A stretch of 64,000 nucleotides of DNA, taken from the NCBI GenBank assembly GCA_016840165.1, contig JAEOSU010000072.1:270566-334565 (forward strand). The letters are read 5' to 3'. This DNA is from Promethearchaeota archaeon (GTDB taxonomy: Archaea; Asgardarchaeota; Lokiarchaeia; Sigyniarchaeales; SOKP01). A program made the translations under genes and the position numbers. Each line of letters starts with the position of its first letter. Position 1 is the first letter of the stretch. Below the pieces are notes generated by a model that saw nothing but the letters and a program-made list of their open reading frames with translations, searched no databases and was not told the origin of the DNA. Shown piece after piece: positions 6,212-19,419 of this stretch.

Positions 6212-6925
6212 TTATATTCCTAAATAAACTTTTTTAATTCTTGGCTCTTTTACTAATTGCTCTTTTGTACCTCTCATCTCAATTTTGCCCTCTTCGAGCA
6301 CATGGATATTTTCACCTACCTCCATAGCGAGAGCTGCGTCTTGTTCAATCAATAGAGTTGTTGTACCTTCTTCTTTAATCTTATTTATCGCCTGAAAAAT
6401 AGTGTCTTTAATTTTTGGAGCTAATCCCAATGAGGGTTCATCTAATAATAAGAGTTTAGGATTAGCCATTAACGATCTTGCAATTGCGAGCATCTGTTGT
6501 TCACCGCCACTCAGAGTACCTGCTCTTTGTTTTTTTCTTTCTTTTAGTCGAGGGAATATTTCAAATATAAATTCCAGTAATTCATTATACTTTTGTTTGT
6601 CTTTAAGAGTATTAGCCCCTAAGTCAATATTTTCCATAACTGTCATATCATAGAATAATCTCCGTCGTTCAGGACAGTGAGCTATCCCTCTCTTTGCTAT
6701 TTTATGAGGTTTCATACCATCAATTCGCTCTCCTAAAAATTCAATTTTACCACGATCAGGTTCTTCTAGTCCAGAAATTACTTTTAGAAGAGTAGATTTT
6801 CCGGCACCATTCGGACCTATTACGGCATCAAGAGCTTTTTCTTCAACTTTTAAGTTTATTTCTTCCAGTGCTCGTGCTTTTTCATAATAATGATATATTT
6901 TTTTCAATTCAAGCAAATCCTTCAC
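6212..6925 (-). CDS. livF: Branched-chain amino acid-type ABC transporter ATPase
   Basis: GPNGAGKST, LSGGEQQMLAIAR, LLLDEPSLGLAP. Confidence 0.9.
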   Translation of the reverse strand: MKDLLELKKIYHYYEKARALEEINLKVEEKALDAVIGPNGAGKSTLLKVISGLEEPDRGKIEFLGERIDGMKPHKIAKRGIAHCPERRRLFYDMTVMENIDLGANTLKDKQKYNELLEFIFEIFPRLKERKKQRAGTLSGGEQQMLAIARSLMANPKLLLLDEPSLGLAPKIKDTIFQAINKIKEEGTTTLLIEQDAALAMEVGENIHVLEEGKIEMRGTKEQLVKEPRIKKVYLGI

Positions 6926-7649
6926 CTCTTCCTAAATATGCTTCTAACACAATTTTGTTATTTGCAACTTCTTGGGGTGGGCCTTCGGCTATATATTTTC
7001 CTTGATGCATTGCTATCACCCTTGGAACTAAGTGCATCAATTCCCGTAATACATGTCCCGTCATAAAAACAGTTACTCCATCATCGTGCAATTTATTGAT
7101 CAAATCAGTAATTCCTTCTTGTTCTTCATGGGAAAGTCCGCTAAATGGTTCATCAAGCAAAAGAAATTGGGGATTAGTCCCAAGAGCTTTAGATATTTGT
7201 AGTTTTCGTAGATCTCCATGGGGAAGTATAATTGGAGGAATTCTAGCCTTATCAACTAAACCAGTTGATGCAAGTATTGTACTGGCATATTCCTCCACTC
7301 CATATTGTTTTGAGGCTTTTCGACTTCTCTTCGACAAGCAAGGAACGACTACATTATCGAGTAAAGTCATATAACGAAAATATCGCACTATTTGAAAGGT
7401 TCTAGCAATACCTAAATTTACAATCTTAAATGGCTTCATACCAGTTATGTCTTGACCATTAAATCTAATAGATCCTGAAGATGGCTTTTCTAAGCCAGAG
7501 ATCATGTTAAAGATTGTTGTCTTTCCTGCTCCATTTGGTCCAATAAGCCCAACAAACTCTCCACGATGTATTTCAAAGCTCATATCATTAACCGCTGTGA
7601 GTCCTGAGAATTTCTTAGTTAAATTCTTAACTTCTAATATAATTCCTAT
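6909..7649 (-). CDS. livG: Branched-chain amino acid-type ABC transporter ATPase; probable start upstream of the track's ATG (7583), at ATA 7649
   Basis: GPNGAGKTT, GIARTFQ, LLLDEP; frame continues upstream as IGIILEVKNLTKKFSGLTAVND, the conserved LivG N-terminus, 6 nt after GGTGA. Confidence 0.85.
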   Translation of the reverse strand: MGIILEVKNLTKKFSGLTAVNDMSFEIHRGEFVGLIGPNGAGKTTIFNMISGLEKPSSGSIRFNGQDITGMKPFKIVNLGIARTFQIVRYFRYMTLLDNVVVPCLSKRSRKASKQYGVEEYASTILASTGLVDKARIPPIILPHGDLRKLQISKALGTNPQFLLLDEPFSGLSHEEQEGITDLINKLHDDGVTVFMTGHVLRELMHLVPRVIAMHQGKYIAEGPPQEVANNKIVLEAYLGRGEGFA

Positions 7650-9844: not shown

Positions 9845-11362
9845 ATGGAACAATTAACAAAAAGAATATTAGCAATCGTACTGATTGCGGTAATAGGAGT
9901 TGCTATAGGATTTACAGTTTGGATCTTTGTTGCCCCTTATGTTTGGAGCAATGTAGATGTGCCTGGGATGGAAAATGAAGCTGCTATCCCTGAAGATCGA
10001 ATAATCAAAATTGGAGTTGCGGGTGATACTAAAAGAATTCATGGTCGAGGCCAATATCAAGGAGCGTATTTAGCAGCATATGAAATCAATACTGGAACTG
10101 GAGCAATCGGATCGAAATATTTCCCTGGGGGAGGTATTACCATTGGCGGTCAAAAATATTATATTGGTATAACCTCGGAGGATACTGATGAAGCTAATCC
10201 ACAACTAGATACTGCTAAAGGTACCGTTGCGGCAGATAGGTTAGTATATTATAAAAACGTGCAATTTGCTTTGGGAGGATTTAGGACAGAATCTCTTTTA
10301 GCATACCGAGAAGTTTTTATGGAGAATGCTATTCCTTTTATCAATACAGGTTCTGCAACAGATAGTTTCTGCGAAGATGTAAAAGACAATTATGCAAGAT
10401 ATAAATATTTCTTCCAAGACAATCCAATTAAGGGCTCGGATTTAGCATCAGAACTTATTAGACTGCTTATGACATCTTCAGTAATATTTTCAGCCTTTCC
10501 ACCCTCTTTAGGAGGTGCTGGTCAACCTGTAATACGGTTTTCGATTGTACGAGAACAGCTAGAATGGACGGAAGGTTTCAAAGATGCAATCGTTGCTGTG
10601 TTAACAAATCTAACAGGTACTAACCCCTTAATAGAAATGGTATTTACAGGGTTAGACATTACGATTCCTCAAAACATTGGAGAAACTGAGATGCGAGCTC
10701 ATTGGTTAAACCTTGATGGTAACAATACTCAAATTGTAGTACCTATTATATCTGGTGAGGCAGGTAGTACATTTACTACTACTTATGGCGATATAAATCC
10801 AGGTATTATTCCCATAGGAATAAATGTTATGTCGCAAGCTGGGGACTATTGGACCACCACAGGTGGTAGATGTGAATACGGTGTAACCTTAGAATCAGTA
10901 TTAAGAACAAACAAAACTACGCTAACACAACCAGTATGGGATGCATATCTTGCGAGATGGTTAGAAAGTCCAATCTATACAGCAGTTGGAGCGATTGATG
11001 CTGTGCTCCATTATGCATGGGCGATTAATGCTTCACAATCCCTTAATCCGGACACAATCGTAGCACAGCTTGAAACATTAGACAAGGCTAATGCCATTGA
11101 ATGTACTGCTGGATGGATAGCGTATGATGATGGTTCTACTGGAGCTACTAGACATTGTACAACAGAAGGTTGGCCTTATGGTGCTGCTCTTGCAGTACAA
11201 TGGTATAATGGTTTTAAGAGATTAGTACCTGGTGCTTTGATTTATCCAAGTGATCCTTGGTCAAGTGCCATTCATCCCTTATATACCCCTCCCTATGGCT
11301 ACCTTGAAGGCATGAACTATACAGTACTTCCACCGGGATTAAATCCACCTACTCCTCCTTAA
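9845..11362 (+). CDS. Membrane-anchored ABC substrate-binding protein (LivK/type I periplasmic-binding fold)
   Basis: N-terminal TM; IKIGV, GAYLAAYEIN..GGI, GGFRTE; divergent from livHMGF. Confidence 0.8.
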   Translation: MEQLTKRILAIVLIAVIGVAIGFTVWIFVAPYVWSNVDVPGMENEAAIPEDRIIKIGVAGDTKRIHGRGQYQGAYLAAYEINTGTGAIGSKYFPGGGITIGGQKYYIGITSEDTDEANPQLDTAKGTVAADRLVYYKNVQFALGGFRTESLLAYREVFMENAIPFINTGSATDSFCEDVKDNYARYKYFFQDNPIKGSDLASELIRLLMTSSVIFSAFPPSLGGAGQPVIRFSIVREQLEWTEGFKDAIVAVLTNLTGTNPLIEMVFTGLDITIPQNIGETEMRAHWLNLDGNNTQIVVPIISGEAGSTFTTTYGDINPGIIPIGINVMSQAGDYWTTTGGRCEYGVTLESVLRTNKTTLTQPVWDAYLARWLESPIYTAVGAIDAVLHYAWAINASQSLNPDTIVAQLETLDKANAIECTAGWIAYDDGSTGATRHCTTEGWPYGAALAVQWYNGFKRLVPGALIYPSDPWSSAIHPLYTPPYGYLEGMNYTVLPPGLNPPTPP

Positions 11363-11426: not shown

Positions 11427-12371
11427 TCAGTTTTTTGTTGAAAATCCATTTTTTAAGCTGAGAATTCGATTTGAGCTTTTATCAAATTGGATGTTTATTG
11501 AATAAAAAGAACCAGAAAAATAACTTTCAGAAAGAAGTAAATAAAGTGTAAATTCTTTCTCGCTTTCTTTAAATTGAGGAAGTATGTATTCCCATTTAAG
11601 GAAAAAAGTATATTTTTTACAAATACCTAAGGCTTGCTTGTAGATTATTTCTTTTTGTGAATTTTTTTCTATCGTTGTCTCATATAAAGTAGTGCTTTTC
11701 TCTTTGAATTGTATTTTTTTAGTTAATTTAAATGTTATTTTATCCTCATTAGATTGGTTTTGATAAACTAAATAGGTAAAAGGAAATATACCTGGTATAT
11801 AATGGGCATAATTGGGCAATCTTAATTGAACCCAGACTTTTGTAATAATTCTATAGGAGAAATAAAAGAGATAAAACCCAAGGATGAAATAAATTATAGG
11901 TGAGAAATATAAAGAAGGCCATAAGAAAAATACCACAAAATAGAAAAGAATTATTGAACCTGAAACCGTTGCTAAAGCGATATTGATGGCTCTATCGATA
12001 AAAAATCTCACTCTTTTTTTATAAAATGGATAAAAAAGGGGAATTTTAGAGGCAGATAAGAAATCTAATGTTAAATGCAAGCTATAAAATAGAAATCCAA
12101 CTACCCATACTAAGAGAAAGGGTTCTTGTAAAAGAAATGATGAAAATATTCCGATTAACCCTGAAAATAAGAAGGCAAAGAAGTAGGAATGAGAAACTCC
12201 TTTATGAGAGAGGAGAGGGGTGTCTTTTATTCTTTTTAATGGCTCTAAGATTATGTCAAAGTCAGCTATCACAGCCATAATAATGCCATACAATACAATA
12301 CTGAAATTAAATGAATTCAGTGTGAATAAGCTCAACAGAATCCCCATTAAAAAATGAGTAAAAAAGTCCAT
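11427..12371 (-). CDS. Membrane-bound metal-dependent hydrolase (YdjM/DUF457-like)
   Basis: MDFFTH start, ADFD, HKGVSHS, LHLTLDF motifs; ATG 12371 preferred over 12452. Confidence 0.75.
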   Translation of the reverse strand: MDFFTHFLMGILLSLFTLNSFNFSIVLYGIIMAVIADFDIILEPLKRIKDTPLLSHKGVSHSYFFAFLFSGLIGIFSSFLLQEPFLLVWVVGFLFYSLHLTLDFLSASKIPLFYPFYKKRVRFFIDRAINIALATVSGSIILFYFVVFFLWPSLYFSPIIYFILGFYLFYFSYRIITKVWVQLRLPNYAHYIPGIFPFTYLVYQNQSNEDKITFKLTKKIQFKEKSTTLYETTIEKNSQKEIIYKQALGICKKYTFFLKWEYILPQFKESEKEFTLYLLLSESYFSGSFYSINIQFDKSSNRILSLKNGFSTKN

Positions 12372-12480
12372 ATTCCTTAAATAAGAAATTTTAATGTATA
12401 TTTTAAGTTTAATATTTTTATTTATAATTTCTATAATAATGAGTTTAATCATAAATAAAAATTCTTAATTTACTAAACTT

Positions 12481-12534
12481 AAAGGAGGCATTCCTTTTGT
12501 TCCTCTTTCACAAACATTTCTTGAAAGAGTTCAT
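12481..12534 (-). promoter_or_regulatory. SECIS-like stem-loop (imperfect 3' core) followed by a short hairpin
   Basis: Minus strand ATGA-A-CTCTTTCA-AG-AAA-TGTTTG-TGAAAGAG-GAAC-A-AAAGGA-ATGCC-TCCTTT: perfect 8-bp stem, AAA 11 nt after ATGA. Confidence 0.35.
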
Positions 12535-12655
12535 TCCAAGCTTAGTTCTATTTCGTTTGAAAATAATGGGCAAAATATTCATTATCTTTACCGAATTTCT
12601 TTCTAATCACTATTTTAAAAGAACTTATTTCAAACCGATTTTTCACTTTTTCTCA

Positions 12656-13015
12656 TCAACATCCAACATCTGGTTGTAATTGAATATAACTGTCAGGATA
12701 GACATTAAATTCAATTTTATCCCGAATGGGATTGAATTTTTGCATCAATCCGTTCTCATCTGGAGCATAAGCATAGATTCCAACATCATCATAAATGCTA
12801 TTTGTTTTAAAATCGACAAGCAATTGCATGTAATTGTGAATATAGCCCTCATTTATAGGAAAAATTGTTTTTTGTGTATCCTTTGCTTCTATTTTATCAA
12901 CCATCGCAAGACATTCCAAGAACGTAGCATCTTCTTTTATTGTAAGATTGTATTTCTTTCCGTGTTGAAGCCCCTTAATCGGTAAACTAATCTCAAAAGT
13001 TATTTTTTTAATAAT
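12656..13015 (-). CDS. Ubiquitin-like/MoaD-type beta-grasp protein ending Gly-Cys followed by TGA TGA; probable ATT start
   Basis: Frame extends upstream of the track's TTG (12919): IIKKITFEISL..KYNLTIKEDATFLECLAMVD (beta-beta-alpha pattern); C-terminus VYPDSYIQLQPDVGC parallels MoaD L.DGD.V...PPV.GG; GGAGG upstream. Confidence 0.6.
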   Translation of the reverse strand: MIKKITFEISLPIKGLQHGKKYNLTIKEDATFLECLAMVDKIEAKDTQKTIFPINEGYIHNYMQLLVDFKTNSIYDDVGIYAYAPDENGLMQKFNPIRDKIEFNVYPDSYIQLQPDVGC

Positions 13016-13048
13016 ATTCCCTCCATTGTTTAAATTAAATATTTATGC

Positions 13049-13324
13049 TTAAATTAACCCTTTTTGTTTCAATATATTTGGTAATTCTTTTTTTAATAAA
13101 TATGAAGCTGTAAAGATCCTATTATTATCCACTACCGCACATTTACTATGAAGATTTAGATTACGTGCCTCTTCAGAATTCAAGTTTTTAGTATCGTAAT
13201 CTATATATTTTATATAAGGAGTAAGTGCTTCAAAAATTCTATTTACAAATTTGTCCCATTCGCAAGCACACGCATCTAATGGAACATATATATTTACTGT
13301 TAATTTTTCATTCGATTTTTCCAT
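13049..13324 (-). CDS. Small thioredoxin-fold-like protein with CAC motif (possible metal/metalloid chaperone)
   Basis: VNIYVPLDACACEW strand-Cys-helix pattern; co-oriented with hgcB-like gene. Confidence 0.5.
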   Translation of the reverse strand: MEKSNEKLTVNIYVPLDACACEWDKFVNRIFEALTPYIKYIDYDTKNLNSEEARNLNLHSKCAVVDNNRIFTASYLLKKELPNILKQKGLI

Positions 13325-13357
13325 TACTTATTATAGCACCTTTTTATTATTAACATT

Positions 13358-13681
13358 TTATGGGCAGTTACAGCTTTTTTGTACGCTTTTAGCAACACTT
13401 CTAGCATTCCACAAACATCCACAACCTTTCTGCTCATTTAAAATAATGGCGTTGACAGGGCAGTTTCGCTGACAAGCACTACATTCTGTGCATAATTCTG
13501 GATGGGTTATCTCGAACTTCCCATTCTCCTTTTCGTGGGGTAATCCAAATGGACAGAGTTCGGCACAAAGCCCACAACCAGTACATTCTGGCTCTTTTAT
13601 CATTATTTTTATACCTAAAACACGTAAAATGTTATCTAAAGAATTTGTATTACAACAAGCGTTCTGATTTATATCTACCAT
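13358..13681 (-). CDS. 2[4Fe-4S] ferredoxin, HgcB-like
   Basis: CTGCGLCAELCP and CTECSACQRNCP motifs, extra GCGC and terminal CNCP; directly downstream of hgcA-like gene. Confidence 0.75.
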   Translation of the reverse strand: MVDINQNACCNTNSLDNILRVLGIKIMIKEPECTGCGLCAELCPFGLPHEKENGKFEITHPELCTECSACQRNCPVNAIILNEQKGCGCLWNARSVAKSVQKSCNCP

Positions 13682-13701
13682 ATTATCTATTCCTCCTTTT
13701 A

Positions 13702-15360
13702 TTATATTATGTTAAAAAAATTAATTATATTTAATCCTAAGAACAAAAAAACAATGATTATTAATATTATATTGATTCTTCTGAAAATTGGATACTCTAA
13801 CTGTATTTCTCTTGGACTAGTCGCCATCGTGTATCCACTGAAAGACATCGTTGAGAAGAAACTTAGCCAAAAAATAATTACACTCTGTAAAAAAACATAG
13901 AGCACTGAGTAATGAATAAACCATGTAAATAGGCTTAGAATAAAGAGAGTAATACCTCCAAAAAATATTGCTTTTAGAACAAATTTTCTTGTAAATTTTG
14001 AAAGTGGGAAGAAAATGGATATTATAGCGTTTGATAAAATTACCCAGATTGCCAACTCCCCAACCCAAAATAGATATTTTGCTTTACTTAAAGCTAGAAG
14101 TAGGATTAATAGTCCTAAAAGAGGTAACCAAAATATTTTGCGAAATAAAAAAGTAATATGTGTTATTCCCGCACGGATTCTTTGAGTAAAGGTAAATTTC
14201 GCAAGTTTCATAGAATCTGGTTTTTTAGTAGGTTTATTCTTGACATATTCCTTTATTTTATTCGACCATACTGGTCCATATTTTATTTTAAAAGGAAAAT
14301 TTTTAGGAAGCTGTGGGATTGATATTCCACCTGCAGATAATTGAGGGAGAATCAGAGTTTTTGTGTTTGTAATCTGTTTAATTCCAGTAGCATTGATTGC
14401 ATTTAAGAGTTGTATATTTCCAAAGTCTCCGCCTCTCGCAGCACACCATACATTTATGCCGTTAGAATCTATACATAAAACCCAAGCGTCAATATCTTTT
14501 AAATCTCGCATTACTTTTATATATGTATAGTCATAATTAGCAGTCACAATAATAGGAGAGTGCTCATCTGGATTTCCTGACCTATAAATACCCGGTTCGA
14601 TTGCAACTCTATCCACTTGCCCAGTAAATAAACATCGGTATATTCTAAACTGAGATTTTATTCCTTTAAAGTTTCGTAATTTCGGTCTATAGTATCCTGG
14701 TTCGTTTTCGGTGTTGACTGTAATTTTTTGTAATTCTATAGCTCTAATAGCCCCATGAGCCCATTCCTTTTTTGTAAGAATTTTGAATCCTATAGAACTT
14801 AAAAAACCTAAAAAGTAATTATTAGTATGAGTACCTCCCAATCTTAATTTCCGTAATTTTTTTTTATACCACCATCTTTTTAACCTAAATTGTATCTTCC
14901 AGAAACCTGAAGGGATAAACTCTGCCGCTATTATTAGCCTTCCATCAGGTTTCAAAGCTCTCCAAACATTTCTCAAAAAAATTTGTTGTTCTAAAGGTTT
15001 AAGCTCAGAAAGCATAAATGTACTCAATATAAGATCTTGTGAGCTATTGTCAACTTCTAAGTCCTTATAAGAACCGACTTGGTATAAAAGCTCTACTTCT
15101 TTTTCAGTTGGATAATTATCCATAGCATATTTAATCATATTCAAGTTATTATCTATTGCTTTAACAATATTCTCTTTTAAAGCAGCATTTTTTGCTAAAG
15201 TACCAGTGCCACATCCAATATCTAAGATAGTACTGTTTTTTTTAATCTTTTCCAATATCCACTCTTGAACTTTATTATTTACGCCCTTAGTTAAAGATGT
15301 GAATTCTGAATCATATGATTTCGGAACTTCCTCTAATTTTTTCATATATACTACTGCCAT
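13702..15360 (-). CDS. Class I SAM-methyltransferase fused to HgcA-like corrinoid-binding domain and TM domain
   Basis: LDIGCGTG motif I; EPGIY, IIVTANYDYT, GINVWCAARGG cap helix, LILPQLSAGG, YGPV; ~5 C-terminal TM helices. Confidence 0.8.
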   Translation of the reverse strand: MAVVYMKKLEEVPKSYDSEFTSLTKGVNNKVQEWILEKIKKNSTILDIGCGTGTLAKNAALKENIVKAIDNNLNMIKYAMDNYPTEKEVELLYQVGSYKDLEVDNSSQDLILSTFMLSELKPLEQQIFLRNVWRALKPDGRLIIAAEFIPSGFWKIQFRLKRWWYKKKLRKLRLGGTHTNNYFLGFLSSIGFKILTKKEWAHGAIRAIELQKITVNTENEPGYYRPKLRNFKGIKSQFRIYRCLFTGQVDRVAIEPGIYRSGNPDEHSPIIVTANYDYTYIKVMRDLKDIDAWVLCIDSNGINVWCAARGGDFGNIQLLNAINATGIKQITNTKTLILPQLSAGGISIPQLPKNFPFKIKYGPVWSNKIKEYVKNKPTKKPDSMKLAKFTFTQRIRAGITHITFLFRKIFWLPLLGLLILLLALSKAKYLFWVGELAIWVILSNAIISIFFPLSKFTRKFVLKAIFFGGITLFILSLFTWFIHYSVLYVFLQSVIIFWLSFFSTMSFSGYTMATSPREIQLEYPIFRRINIILIIIVFLFLGLNIINFFNII

Positions 15361-15371
15361 TCAACACCAAC

Positions 15372-16466
15372 TTATTTGGATTTCCAAAACCCAATTTTTC
15401 CCAAATATCTCCCTAAATAGACAATTGAGAGCATAATAGGCACTTCCCAGAACAACCCCATGGTAGTACCTAATGCGGCATAAGAACCAATCCCATACAT
15501 CGCTATTGCTGTTGCGATCGCGATCTCAAAATGACTAGACGAACCAATGATGACTGTAATTACTGCCTCTTTATATTTCAATTTAAGCAATTTTGTGACT
15601 ATAACATTATAACTAACAACAATTACAAATCCCACCAATAGGGGAATAGATACTATTAATAAAAGATCAGGATTAGTAATTAGTACATTACCATTTAGCG
15701 AAAATAGTACAACAAGAGTTATCAATAAAGCTATAATCGATACTTTTCCGACGAATGGACGATATTTTTCATCGAACCAAACTTTACCTTTAGAAGATAT
15801 TATTAATTTCTTGCTTAAGATCCCCAGAAGCAAAGGTAAACCAATAAAAAATATTAAAGAAACAAGTAATAGTAAAATATCTATAGGAATATTTTTAATT
15901 CCTGATAATAATGAGACCATTCCAACATAGCCAAAAATTATTGTAATTGTATTAAGACTTGTATTAAGGACATTTTGTTCCTGATTTCCTTTAGCCATCC
16001 AACCCCAAACCAAAACCATAGCAGTACAGGGTGAACTAGATAATAAAATAATTGCAAATCCCAATTGTCTCACTATTTCTGAATCTCCCGGTAAAAATAT
16101 GTTTACCATCAACAAACCAACGAAGGGTGCCACTAACCAGTTAGAGATTAAAGTTAAAATTATAGGTTTGGGATTCTTTCCAAGTTTTTTTAATTCCGAT
16201 GCTTGAAGATTTAACATCGCAGGATACATCATTAAAAATAAACAAATACCAATTGGTATAGAAATGTTTCCAATAGTGAAAGAATTGATTAAAATACTAA
16301 TTTCTGGAAGAAATTGGGAAATTAAAATCCCTAAGATTATGCAAATTCCTACCCAGATTGGTAATAATCTTTCAAAATAGTTGATTTTTCTCGATTTTTG
16401 TTTATCTGGTTCATCAAAACTCTCTAATAATTCCTGTTCAAACTCTTCTTCAGCCATAATTCTCAA
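15372..16466 (-). CDS. acr3: Arsenite efflux transporter, Acr3 family
   Basis: LFLMMYP, SNWLVAP, PCTAMVLVW, SSHFEIAIATA, EVPIML. Confidence 0.92.
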   Translation of the reverse strand: MRIMAEEEFEQELLESFDEPDKQKSRKINYFERLLPIWVGICIILGILISQFLPEISILINSFTIGNISIPIGICLFLMMYPAMLNLQASELKKLGKNPKPIILTLISNWLVAPFVGLLMVNIFLPGDSEIVRQLGFAIILLSSSPCTAMVLVWGWMAKGNQEQNVLNTSLNTITIIFGYVGMVSLLSGIKNIPIDILLLLVSLIFFIGLPLLLGILSKKLIISSKGKVWFDEKYRPFVGKVSIIALLITLVVLFSLNGNVLITNPDLLLIVSIPLLVGFVIVVSYNVIVTKLLKLKYKEAVITVIIGSSSHFEIAIATAIAMYGIGSYAALGTTMGLFWEVPIMLSIVYLGRYLGKIGFWKSK

Positions 16467-16563
16467 ATTATATTTAATGTGTTTTTATTCATATTATTAA
16501 ATGAAATTGTAATTTCATCTAATTAGAGTCTGAGATATAGTTATTTTGGCTCAAATAAAAACA

Positions 16564-16581
16564 TTTCGATTTGAATCGAAA
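16564..16581. promoter_or_regulatory. Candidate ArsR operator (8-2-8 palindrome)
   Basis: TTTCGATT-TG-AATCGAAA perfect inverted repeat between divergent acr3 and arsR. Confidence 0.45.
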
Positions 16582-16701
16582 CAAATTTATCTGAATAAAT
16601 TTTTTATACTTTAATAGCTTCTAGATACATAAGAATTTACCAATCCTTAAATAAAATGGTGGTTTATTATTAAAACCAATAGAAAAGCGGAAGTTAAAGA
16701 A

Positions 16702-17061
16702 ATGTTATGCTCATGTGATGTATGTGGAGATAGTGAGACTCTTTTCATTAATTTGCAACAATTAGGAAAAAATCTTAGGTATGATGAGCAAATTAATAAA
16801 GCTATTAATTTTTTAAATGTTTTAGGAAATATTGAAAGACTAATAATTATTAATGTTTTGAAGGAAAAGGATAGATGTGTCTGTGAATTAGAAGCTATTT
16901 TAGATAAATCTCAACCATCAATCTCTCACCATTTAAGGGAATTGGAAAAGCTTAATTTAATCCAAGGATTAAAAAAAGGAAAATTTACCTATTATTCCCT
17001 CAATAAGGATGCTTTAATATCTAGTTTAACCTATATTATAAACCAATTAAATGTTAAATAA
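16702..17061 (+). CDS. arsR: ArsR/SmtB family transcriptional repressor
   Basis: RCVCELE metalloid-binding motif, SQPSISHHLREL HTH; N-terminal CSCDVC. Confidence 0.88.
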   Translation: MLCSCDVCGDSETLFINLQQLGKNLRYDEQINKAINFLNVLGNIERLIIINVLKEKDRCVCELEAILDKSQPSISHHLRELEKLNLIQGLKKGKFTYYSLNKDALISSLTYIINQLNVK

Positions 17062-17163
17062 TTCTATGCATCTTGTCCAAATTTTAAACCTAATAAACTC
17101 AAAGAATATGTTGATTTCTATTTTTATGGAATTAATGGTAAAAGGTAAAAAAGAATGTATTTA

Positions 17164-19419
17164 TTATTTTGGTTTTAATGTTTGTTTAGACTCGAGATTT
17201 TCTGAAATAGCTTCTTTTGTAAAGAGATAGGGAATATACTTTCCTTTCACCCAAAGTTTAATTAAATCTTTATAATGTTTATGAAAGGGAAGACCAGATT
17301 GACCACCAGGAAGGGCTCCTATAGAATTATCCCAGTTTGAGAGATCATGAATCTGACGATAAGATGGCCCAGAGAGCACATCGAATCCTTCAGAAGGATC
17401 ATAAGAGCCCGGATTTAAAGTATTTCCATCTCCTCCAATTTTAAAAGGACCAGCGTTTAGGATTTTTGCTTGTTCGTTAGCTTGTGAAAAGGGATGCGTC
17501 AATGTGAGTGTATGAAGTCTCCCCCACATCCATTTATCGGATCTAGAACCAAAAAGGTTAGATAGGTAATCTAAAGCTCTTTCTAAAGCCTTAAGTAGTA
17601 ATTTTGAGATCTCTGCTTCCTTGTTTCTATACAAGGATTCAAAAATTTGTTTCAAATTGAAAGGTCGACTTCCAAGAGCCATATGAGCCACCTTTGTACC
17701 TAGTATAGATTCTAATACAGATTTTTGAGTCTCACTATACCAGACTTTAAATATAGTTCCGGCAATAGTTGTTTTTGTCAAAAAATAGTTCCATTTTTCT
17801 AAGTAAGAAATAGAATCTTGAACATTCGATAAATCTTTGTTCTCTTTTAAATATTGAAGCATAATGGGTAATAGTTCTGCGGCCTCTTCTGTAAATCTAT
17901 CGAGCTGGAAAGCCTTAAAATCCTCAATCGATAATTTTTCTTTGGATTGAAGTAGCTTCTTTAATCTTAATTGTCTATATGGAGCGATTCTATCTTCTGC
18001 GATTAATAATCCATTTGGTGCTTTTTCTACGTTGTAATTTGCAGTATAAACAAAACCTCGTTCTGGGTTATAGAGGGAATATAATTTATCAAATTCAGAG
18101 ATCCCTTCCCAGTCATATTTTTCATCATCCCCAGGACTTATACTTGCTCCGTTTCCATATTTTCTTACAGGTATTTTTCCTCCATGTTGATGTCCAATAT
18201 TACCAGCGATATCTCCATAAATGAAGTTTTGTGGATTTATTGTTATAAGAGATAAGGCCTCTCTGAATTCTTGCCAACTTGAAGCTTTATTGATTCCTTT
18301 AAATCCTTTTAGATTATTAATAAGATCCGCATTATAACTAGACCATTTTAATGCGTATTTACCTTCTATAAAAAAGGGATATATCTGATTATAATTCTCA
18401 AAGTAATTAATTACAGGTCCGAATCTACTGCGATAGACAGGATATTTTAGTGGTTTTGATTCACCTTTGATATGGATTACTTCTTCATCAATTTCAAAAT
18501 CTACCCATTTACCATTATAGCGATATTGCTTTTCATCATTTGGATTTATAGTTAATTTAAATAAATCTGTTGTATCAGCCATAACATTAGTTAAGCCCCA
18601 AGCAATTGATTCATTATGACCTATTACAACTGCAGGTACTCCAGGAAGAGAAGTACCTAGGACATTAAGATCGGGACAATTTAAATGAATTAAGAACCAT
18701 AATGCTGGGTTGGTTAGTGGTAGATGGGGATCATTAGCTAATAATACAGATCCACTTTGAGATTTTTTCGGGCTTACCGCCCACGAGTTGCTCCCAACAG
18801 ATTCATCAACCAACATTTCAGAGTTAAAAGGTATAATTAAGTTAGCTGTTTTCTTTCCATTTTTAATTGTTATATACTCTCTTAGGATTTCATATGGATA
18901 ATTCCAACTACTTAATGACCATTCGATCATACTAATGATTTTAAAACAATCCTCTAATTTCCATGCATCAGGTTTAAAATTTAATACATGATATTCAATA
19001 GGTAAACTATTTTCTATTATTTGGATTCTTGTATTTACACCTTTTATATAAGAGTCCATAAATTTAAAATCTTCAGAATTTTTCTTTCTTTCGAGATCTC
19101 GAGCACATCTTTGAGCAATATGGTATAAACCGATTTCTCTATAATGCTTATCACTGGCTATTGAACCCTTTCCAGTGATTTCAGAAAGAGTCCCGGAAAT
19201 TAATCTTCTAAAGGTTTCCATTTGCCATAATCTATGACCTGCATGGATATATCCTTGCGTAAAATATAGATCATATATATCGTTAGCAAAAACATGTGGT
19301 ATACCCCATTTATCCCACAGTATTTCTACACTAGCATTTAAACCTTTAACAGTTTCTTCTCCTTGCATCAATGGAAATGATTTTTTGGCAATTTCTAACA
19401 TTTCTTCCATAATTATCAC
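17164..19419 (-). CDS. Penicillin acylase family Ntn-hydrolase (peptidase S45)
   Basis: DKWGIPHVFA, GSNSWAV nucleophile, LANDPHL, PGGQSG. Confidence 0.9.
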   Translation of the reverse strand: MIIMEEMLEIAKKSFPLMQGEETVKGLNASVEILWDKWGIPHVFANDIYDLYFTQGYIHAGHRLWQMETFRRLISGTLSEITGKGSIASDKHYREIGLYHIAQRCARDLERKKNSEDFKFMDSYIKGVNTRIQIIENSLPIEYHVLNFKPDAWKLEDCFKIISMIEWSLSSWNYPYEILREYITIKNGKKTANLIIPFNSEMLVDESVGSNSWAVSPKKSQSGSVLLANDPHLPLTNPALWFLIHLNCPDLNVLGTSLPGVPAVVIGHNESIAWGLTNVMADTTDLFKLTINPNDEKQYRYNGKWVDFEIDEEVIHIKGESKPLKYPVYRSRFGPVINYFENYNQIYPFFIEGKYALKWSSYNADLINNLKGFKGINKASSWQEFREALSLITINPQNFIYGDIAGNIGHQHGGKIPVRKYGNGASISPGDDEKYDWEGISEFDKLYSLYNPERGFVYTANYNVEKAPNGLLIAEDRIAPYRQLRLKKLLQSKEKLSIEDFKAFQLDRFTEEAAELLPIMLQYLKENKDLSNVQDSISYLEKWNYFLTKTTIAGTIFKVWYSETQKSVLESILGTKVAHMALGSRPFNLKQIFESLYRNKEAEISKLLLKALERALDYLSNLFGSRSDKWMWGRLHTLTLTHPFSQANEQAKILNAGPFKIGGDGNTLNPGSYDPSEGFDVLSGPSYRQIHDLSNWDNSIGALPGGQSGLPFHKHYKDLIKLWVKGKYIPYLFTKEAISENLESKQTLKPK

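Follow-up and report, generated by a model that had tools for sequence, protein, structure and literature searches.

A methyltransferase–HgcA-like fusion in an ArsR-linked operon of Lokiarchaeia: a possible corrinoid-dependent metalloid methylation system

HgcAB, a corrinoid protein (HgcA) that works with a ferredoxin (HgcB), methylates mercury, and we know of no natural role for the pair and of no benefit that mercury methylation brings. Purified canonical HgcAB draws its methyl group from S-adenosylmethionine (SAM) and not from methyl-tetrahydrofolate (Me-THF), and passes it through a methyl-Co(III) intermediate with a cysteine thiolate ligand (Zheng 2024, PMC11588087), in a study that mentions neither fused homologues nor arsenic. 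The tie of canonical hgcAB to ArsR, arsenic and S-adenosylhomocysteine (SAH) has also been published, with hgcAB of Pseudodesulfovibrio under an ArsR that answers to arsenic as well as SAH (bioRxiv 10.1101/2022.10.17.512643). Here we analyse a 64,000-nucleotide (nt) stretch of the genome of a member of the Lokiarchaeia (the window; contig C54 in a 3.6-Mb assembly of 105 contigs) in which a class I SAM methyltransferase is fused to an HgcA-like protein, and in which this fusion gene and an hgcB-like gene lie within an arsenite efflux operon that diverges from arsR. We put at roughly one in two the chance that this presumably ArsR-controlled operon, with a methyl-transfer cassette (cpaM–hgcA-like plus hgcB-like) inside an arsenite module (acr3, p91 and p155), is a metalloid methylation mechanism; its make-up suggests a SAM-loaded corrinoid route for methylating arsenic-like elements.

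By architecture, the closest described system is CpaM (NF043040) with the HgcAB-like protein (NF043039), together with the clade that Lin et al. (2023, PMC10083202) call "fused HgcAB". The association of a methyltransferase with a corrinoid protein is already named in NCBIfam, where CpaM stands for "corrinoid protein-associated methyltransferase". Both systems consist of the same three modules, namely a class I SAM methyltransferase, an HgcA-type corrinoid and transmembrane (TM) protein with an NVWCA cap helix, and a ferredoxin with two [4Fe-4S] clusters, but the fusion point differs: the catalogued pair joins HgcA to HgcB and leaves the methyltransferase separate, whereas here the methyltransferase is joined to HgcA and HgcB is separate. 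The fusion also scores below both cut-offs (139 bits against 180 for CpaM, and 178 against 285 for HgcAB-like), falls in its own clade outside the HgcAB-like proteins, has a cap helix reading AARG where HgcAB-like proteins have A[AS]xGG, and stands in an ars operon. By chemistry, the closest system is canonical HgcA and HgcB (NF040863 and NF040864), with which it shares a corrinoid domain with a cysteine as the cobalt ligand, five TM helices, a dicluster ferredoxin with extra cysteines, a link to arsR that is frequent and to acr3 that is occasional in the canonical system and, probably, SAM as the methyl source. It differs from canonical HgcAB by the additional SAM methyltransferase domain, the missing GKGTF, a score under the cut-off and a separate deep clade. 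The fusion is thus best described as a variant of the catalogued CpaM/HgcAB-like system that misses the HgcA, HgcAB-like and CpaM cut-offs and forms a clade of its own. Literature searches for CpaM with corrinoid proteins, for methyltransferase-fused HgcA and for HgcAB-like proteins found no account of this fusion. The present analysis also yields the distinction between the cassette and the acr3 module, the slot that the cassette shares with the arsenite methyltransferase ArsM, and the null association with ArsM at the level of genomes.

The genes of the operon and its regulator are as follows.
16702–17061, plus strand: arsR, a divergent ArsR/SmtB-type metalloregulator (PF01022, NF033788)
15372–16466, minus strand: acr3, an ACR3-family arsenite efflux permease and the first gene of the operon (TIGR00832, PF01758)
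13702–15360, minus strand: the methyltransferase–HgcA-like fusion of 552 amino acids (aa) (NF043040 with NF040863, NF043039 and PF03599)
13358–13681, minus strand: hgcB-like gene for a ferredoxin of 107 aa with two [4Fe-4S] clusters (NF040864, Fer4 families)
13049–13324, minus strand: p91, a predicted thioredoxin-fold CAC protein of 91 aa without a Pfam or NCBIfam match
12551–13015, minus strand, stop codon TAG at 12550–12548: p155, a predicted beta-grasp selenoprotein of 155 aa with conserved read-through

An earlier note, made from the letters of the window and its open reading frames (ORFs), had described these six genes, their orientations, the short gaps and the divergent arsR; the ORF list and our profile scans bear out all of this, with gaps of 11, 20, 33 and 33 nt in the co-oriented run of five genes, and the limits of the end gene had to be revised.

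Architecture and relationships of the fusion protein

Within the fusion, the following parts can be told apart.
14716–15360, minus strand: N-terminal CpaM-like class I SAM methyltransferase domain, aa 1–215 (NF043040)
14176–14643, minus strand: HgcA-like corrinoid-binding domain, approximately aa 240–395 (PF03599 at 3e-15, NF040863)
14431–14454, minus strand: cap helix NVWCAARG, aa 303–310, with Cys306 as the putative cobalt ligand
13702–14175, minus strand: C-terminal membrane domain, aa 396–552, with about five TM helices by the Kyte–Doolittle scale

The N-terminal domain aligns through aa 3–209 with positions 2–213 of the 216 in the CpaM model at 135.8–138.8 bits, below the cut-off of 180; the next-best methyltransferase in the genome reaches 72 bits on the same model, or roughly half. 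Motif I reads ILDIGCGTG, and its glycines G49, G51 and G53 as well as the acidic D70 are invariant among 12 diverse homologues (down to 59% identity). The domain thus has the placement of a CpaM, fused in frame to an HgcA-like domain, and its SAM motifs are intact. Over aa 253–536 the protein matches HgcA (NF040863) at 176.3 bits, or 177.9 in the genome search, where the cut-off is 275, and it matches HgcAB-like (NF043039) at 177.9 bits over model positions 15–264 only, where the cut-off is 285; the two models fit the C-terminal part about equally well. The nearest solved structures by sequence are large subunits of the corrinoid iron–sulfur protein (CFeSP), with 2h9a aligned to aa 244–375 (E 4e-9). 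Hydropathy places TM segments at aa 409–427, 436–454, 460–478, 481–504 and 531–549, as in the five-helix membrane domain of HgcA.

In the cap helix, all of 12 diverse homologues read NGINVWCAARG. Relative to the canonical pattern N(V/I)WCA(A/G)GK the cysteine is retained and GK is replaced by RG, while canonical loci read AAG(K/A)(G/K)xF in 42 cases of 42 and AAGK in 41. Compared over 110 loci, the motif is specific to each clade.
Canonical HgcA: GINVWCAAGKGTF
Loki fusions: AARG[NDG][DN]F
Thor fusions: AARGxHF
Chloroflexota fusions: AAGGG[YF]F
HgcAB-like proteins: A[AS]xGG

In a quick maximum-likelihood search on 112 corrinoid-domain sequences (175 columns, CdhE as outgroup), whose tree is without resolution in its backbone, canonical HgcA gathers in one clade with a Shimodaira–Hasegawa-like approximate likelihood ratio (SH-aLRT) support of 97, and the Loki fusions fall outside it. 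HgcAB-like proteins and Chloroflexota fusions form a joint clade (SH-aLRT 95), and the Loki fusions (100) and Thor fusions (98) form separate long-stemmed clades. Because the score lies under the cut-off, the cap motif is specific to its clade and the tree position is separate, the corrinoid part is, as far as profiles and the quick tree can tell, a member of the HgcA superfamily and not a canonical HgcA. These profiles, alignments and tree agree with what the earlier note had read from the translation, namely the domain calls and an altered cap helix that keeps its cysteine ligand, and they supply the comparison with HgcA models and phylogeny that it had proposed as a check.

The note had also proposed that the class I SAM methyltransferase serves the corrinoid protein, and the wider survey supports it. 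HgcAB-like fusion proteins exceed their cut-off in 58 of 301 sampled Asgard genomes, and a CpaM-like gene lies immediately 5′ on the same strand in 28 of the 30 Asgard HgcAB-like loci that were fetched. In four of these loci (L129, L131, L132 and L133) CpaM is itself fused, in ORFs of about 600 aa; each such ORF is a triple fusion that unites CpaM with the HgcA-like and HgcB-like parts, and ORFs of 645–672 aa with full HgcAB-like matches exist too. Single ORFs of 532–629 aa with a methyltransferase ahead of the HgcA domain occur in Thorarchaeota, Chloroflexota, Poribacteria and Desulfobacteraceae. A CpaM-type methyltransferase is thus adjacent or fused in every non-canonical HgcA clade examined, and tblastn found no such domain within 8 kb of 42 canonical hgcAB loci. 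From these varied neighbours and fusions across clades it follows that the system is best seen as three modules, a SAM methyltransferase, a corrinoid and TM protein and a ferredoxin, which occur in several fusion states. The operon described here has the state in which the methyltransferase is fused to HgcA and HgcB stands apart. Loading of cobalamin from SAM would be plausible because purified canonical HgcAB draws its methyl group from SAM.

The best NCBIfam match of the ferredoxin is HgcB (NF040864), at 8e-14 and 51 bits where the cut-off is 99. It has two CX2CX2CX3CP motifs and an N-terminal CC; GCGC falls where HgcB has Cys73, and the C-terminus reads CNCP here and CCG in most members of the clade. 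The gene begins 20 nt 3′ of the fusion, and a separate gene of this type lies directly 3′ of the fusion in all 40 related loci.

A two-gene cassette in the acr3 module

Fusions of the Loki type, defined by at least 49% identity over the full length, are present in approximately 51 of 68 sampled genomes of the host's taxonomic family, and fusions of the Thor type, at 32–37% identity, occur in two other families. We fetched 40 neighbourhoods from the host's family and mapped the proteins of the window on them; these genomes are relatives, and the resulting counts should not be read as independent events. In 22 of the 40 loci acr3 lies directly 5′ of the fusion with a divergent arsR, in six arsR alone lies 5′, and in the remaining 12 no ars gene lies within 7 kb of the fusion. 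The acr3 orthologues that lie 5′ of the fusion are 71–80% identical. Downstream, the 22 acr3 loci carry p91 and p155 in 19 cases and p155 only in one, and in two the contig ends. Linkage to acr3 in these relatives answers the concern, raised in the earlier note, that it might be unique to this genome. Outside the family, arsR lies immediately upstream of the Thor fusion and co-oriented with it in five of six loci, and likewise in one Poribacteria locus.

The two small proteins had been proposed as undescribed components of the methylation system, and this part of the earlier proposal is not supported. Where the fusion sits away from acr3, p91 is found elsewhere, and at least 12 such cases are operons of arsR divergent from acr3–p91–p155 without hgcA. 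Because such operons exist, p91 and p155 belong to the acr3 module, and the hgcA–hgcB pair, judging by gene order, behaves as a two-gene cassette that roughly half of the species carry as an insertion between acr3 and p91.

In other Lokiarchaeia the same slot is occupied by ArsM. Six other Loki loci have ArsM (more than 335 bits against the NF008823 cut-off of 263) where the cassette would stand between acr3 and p91/p155, and in at least one of them (L237, 1225–2337, minus strand) ArsM and p91 are a single protein of 370 aa, a gene fusion that, in the Rosetta-stone sense, links p91 to arsenic methylation. ArsM stands directly 5′ of a p91-type sequence also in L231, L232 and L234, with the Sec-Sec gene (Sec, selenocysteine; described below for p155) next, and acr3 and arsR precede ArsM in loci of the L237, L231, L232 and L234 type wherever the stretch extends far enough. 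In the host, no ArsM or ArsC exceeds its family cut-off in the whole genome, the best ArsM match being 82 bits against 263 for NF008823, which extends to the genome the absence of arsM and arsC that the earlier note had seen in the window.

Substrate, mechanism and rival explanations

The reading that we favour, metalloid methylation by the cassette, can be set out as a series of steps. The N-terminal class I domain would bind SAM and methylate the cob(I)alamin that the HgcA-like domain carries within the same polypeptide, with Cys306 of the cap helix becoming the lower ligand of methyl-Co(III); the direction of transfer, from SAM to cobalt, is one that we infer. The methyl group would then be passed, at the face of the membrane, to a thiol-bound soft metal or metalloid, which by context would most likely be As(III) or a related element, for example Sb(III). 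Re-reduction of the cobalt would fall to the HgcB-like ferredoxin, whose vicinal cysteines may pass on the substrate. Acr3 would export arsenite, and p91 and p155 would serve the pump, the methylase or both by binding the metalloid or reducing it.

Among the candidate functions, methylation of As(III) or Sb(III) appears to be the single most likely one, at well under even odds. Arsenic as the substrate is suggested by the operon context, and the sharing of the slot with ArsM is circumstantial support. Like ArsM/AS3MT, the fusion has a class I SAM fold, and in other Lokiarchaeia ArsM stands in the same slot between acr3 and p91/p155; unlike ArsM, the fusion has no cysteine-rich As(III) site, and its action would be mediated by a corrinoid, not direct. 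On ArsM models the methyltransferase domain reaches 35–42 bits (35 on NF008823), below the cut-off of 263. A more far-reaching version, which we hold only tentatively and think doubtful as it stands, is that Lokiarchaeia have a second route of metalloid methylation that is independent of ArsM, in which a self-charging membrane enzyme would move methyl groups from SAM to cobalamin and on to As(III) or Sb(III) delivered by p91 and p155, and which would reflect an ancestral, non-mercury function of HgcAB.

Several observations weigh against metalloid methylation or against arsenic as its substrate, or are neutral. Across the 51 genomes scored for both, the presence of ArsM is statistically independent of the fusion: the two occur together in 11, the fusion alone in 25, ArsM alone in five and neither in 10. 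In L151 (the same locus as L017) arsM lies between acr3 and the fusion at approximately 6280–7000, with both in one operon. As noted, 12 of the 40 loci pair the fusion with hgcB and have no ars gene within 7 kb, and p91 and p155 track acr3 and not hgcA. Canonical HgcAB uses SAM without a CpaM domain. Methylation of As(III) by ArsM relies on CH3+ chemistry; HgcA, by contrast, is believed to transfer a carbanion or radical, for which As(III) would be no obvious acceptor. Loss of hgcAB in ND132 did not lower As(III) resistance (bioRxiv 10.1101/2022.10.17.512643). We considered that the fusion might displace ArsM and rejected this, as the 51 genomes show no anticorrelation; given also that L151 carries both genes, simple functional replacement of ArsM lacks support. 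In one further locus, L155, arsM lies approximately 0.9 kb 5′ of a fusion that has no acr3.

The rival explanations draw on the same evidence. That the cassette methylates a non-metal substrate, be it a thiol, a lipid, a quinone or another compound, and that its place among ars genes reflects regulatory hitch-hiking or control by SAM and SAH, would account for the 12 loci without an ars neighbour, for the Asgard pairs of CpaM and HgcAB-like genes that have no ars genes in their flanks of ±1.5 kb, for the response of the hgcAB-linked ArsR of ND132 to SAH as well, and for the lack of anticorrelation with ArsM. We nevertheless think it unlikely, since the insertion exactly between acr3 and p91–p155 is kept in 22 species, arsR is adjacent in two independent Asgard clades and in the Poribacteria locus, the ArsRs retain the thiolate CVC metalloid site, ArsM sits in the same slot elsewhere, and the HgcB-like protein keeps the extra vicinal cysteines typical of metal hand-over. 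Nor is the protein likely to be simply a mercury methylase, in the form of a diverged HgcAB acting on Hg(II) whose ars context reflects the known ArsR-type co-regulation of hgcAB, an explanation to which we give a small chance. Homology to HgcA and HgcB speaks for it, with the cysteine ligand of cobalt, the five TM helices, and the Cys73-like and terminal cysteine pairs of HgcB, and so does the presence of arsR and acr3 beside canonical hgcAB in four of our loci (L054, L070, L072 and L073) and in the work of Gionfriddo et al. Against these stand scores far under the curated cut-offs (on HgcA 176 bits where 275 are required, on HgcB 51 where 99 are), a position outside the canonical clade across a branch with an SH-aLRT of 97, and a cap helix that lacks GKGTF in every member. 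Moreover, according to the statement in PMC10083202 that cites Podar (2015), the fused HgcAB of P. furiosus, the sole non-canonical relative tested, did not methylate mercury.

The fused SAM domain could also be a repair module that, with SAM and an electron from HgcB, re-methylates cobalt that has lapsed to Co(II), while the routine donor is a methyl-pterin of the Wood–Ljungdahl pathway. Methionine synthase (MetH), whose reactivation domain provides the model, employs SAM for reactivation only, and the genome encodes a CdhE/CFeSP-type protein (C58:39542), so that methyl-pterin chemistry would be present. We regard this as improbable, because purified canonical HgcAB uses SAM and not Me-THF as its catalytic donor, no pterin-binding methyltransferase is encoded in or beside the operon, and CpaM is a Rossmann methyltransferase unrelated to the reactivation domain of MetH.

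If metalloid methylation by the cassette is taken further, the ars-operon slot of the Loki clade, which is ArsM's slot in sister species, leads to the hypothesis of As or Sb as the substrate, and a route on As(III) or Sb(III) would, if true, point to an ancestral non-mercury function of the HgcAB superfamily. For environmental work the consequence is more immediate: among the "hgcA" genes counted in metagenome screens of marine sediments are Asgard sequences that probably do not stand for mercury methylation, and such screens would overcount methylators.

The small proteins, the regulator and the flanks

The proteins p91 and p155 are members of the Lokiarchaeial arsenic module that lack annotation, and neither has a Pfam or NCBIfam match. 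The p91 family comprises 175 database proteins, and all those with a source name are from Asgard archaea. Its motif VPLDACACEWDKF is invariant in the family and places CxC at the N-terminus of helix 1. The AlphaFold2 model (mean confidence, pLDDT, 87.6) has a predicted thioredoxin fold, matching thioredoxins with Z up to 10.1 and a Foldseek TM score of about 0.6; the structure search returned 24 chains at Z of at least 8, and the motif is CxC rather than the CxxC of thioredoxin. The arsenic metallochaperone ArsD combines a thioredoxin fold with vicinal cysteines where helix 1 begins, and p91 resembles it in both respects. It differs in that the two show no sequence match and no ArsA is encoded here. 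The likeness is one of fold class, and ArsD does not figure among the listed structural matches of p91, a listing that would not decide against an ArsD-like p91.

For the last gene, the coordinates are 12551–13015, and not 12656–12919 or 12656–13015. At its 5′ end the frame is open and conserved beyond the listed TTG, back to an ATT at 13015 that follows GGAGG. The conserved N-terminus of p155 offers no ATG, GTG or TTG; at 13012–13024 the sequence reads GGAGG, 4 nt, then ATT ATT, which points to initiation at a codon other than NTG, whereas in L017 the homologue begins with ATG. At the 3′ end the protein reads QPDVGC-U-U, with TGA codons at 12658–12656 and 12655–12653, and continues into a helical tail of 34 codons. 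The TGA TGA pair and the in-frame tail are conserved in six homologues (34–72% identity), and tblastn through stops finds the read-through conserved across at least 19 operons. Database entries for p155 all end at the first TGA, apart from P0254, in which TGA is translated as W and the same tail follows. Subfamilies carry GC-U-U, AD-U-U or U-G-U-U.

A candidate RNA element lies just beyond the stop codon.
12472–12547, minus strand: hairpin resembling a selenocysteine insertion sequence (SECIS) in the 3′ untranslated region, conserved in homologues

Its parts are ATGA (12534–12531), a stem, an A-rich loop, a second stem, GA and an outer helix, and the same hairpin, with compensatory changes in the stem, lies a few nt 3′ of the stop in L003, L013 (twice), L014 and L017. 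Rfam finds no SECIS or other RNA family in 12300–17200. SelD is present above its cut-off with an in-frame TGA of its own (C40:17349–18191), and the organism would therefore use selenocysteine. ARAGORN detects no tRNA-Sec in an assembly that yields just 11–13 tRNAs in all, and what the Rfam tRNA-Sec model picks up stays below its threshold (39.9 bits against 47; C79:33181–33253). From the conserved codons, tail and hairpin, we identify the product of the last gene as a Cys-Sec-Sec selenoprotein of 155 aa.

The AlphaFold2 model of p155 (pLDDT 88.5) is a beta-grasp fold, with Z up to 7.3 for SAMP1 and the beta-domain of transcobalamin and 6–6.8 for MoaD and CysO. Of the call that had been made for this gene, a ubiquitin-like protein ending in Gly-Cys, the fold therefore stands, while the end arises from taking UGA for a stop. 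In the model, Cys-Sec-Sec sits where MoaD, ThiS and SAMP carriers have their terminal Gly-Gly, but p155 has Gly-Cys-Sec-Sec followed by a tail of 34 aa and no free Gly-Gly end, so that E1-type chemistry is unlikely. In L003 the tail of the homologue contains one more in-frame TGA, its third (10772–10774), at a position that is Gly in the others and that may be Sec, an error or a stop. Tandem Sec-Sec beta-grasp paralogues of differing subtypes, U-G-U-U or AD-U-U beside GC-U-U, occur in L013 (2617–3102 and 3208–3666), L207, L208 and L212.

The regulator has a winged-helix HTH_5 fold (PF01022, 2e-14; NF033788, 70 bits against a cut-off of 55) and a CVC thiolate site in helix α3, where the sequence is DRCVCELEAIL with the motif CVCE, as well as an N-terminal cluster CSCDVC. 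CVC in α3 is the As(III)-binding site of ArsR from plasmid R773. CVC[DE] is found in 31 of 33 ArsRs that adjoin Loki fusions and in five of five that adjoin Thor fusions. By its fold and CVC site the arsR product is thus predicted to be a repressor of the As(III)-responsive type. The acr3 product covers positions 2–325 of the 327 in TIGR00832 at 2.4e-76 and 257.2 bits, just under the cut-off of 282.8, and has the SBF fold of PF01758 (5e-36, 124.6 bits against 24.3).

The two genes diverge from a common spacer.
16467–16701: arsR/acr3 divergent control region, 235 nt, AT-rich

The spacer contains a palindrome, TTTCGATT-N2-AATCGAAA, at 16564–16581, which recurs in the two closest loci only (L136 and L141), and for this reason we claim no operator. 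A scan for sigma-70 promoters and terminators gave a signal at the level of shuffled sequence, with a model that is not applicable to an archaeon. In many related loci (L136, L138, L139 and others) the arsR–acr3 spacer is approximately 920 nt and not 235 nt, which implies an extra gene or element there. The operon is flanked by two genes on the minus strand, one for a YdjM-family membrane protein (11427–12452) and one for a penicillin-amidase-family protein (17164–19419), and ydjM is syntenic 3′ of the operon in L003 and L017.

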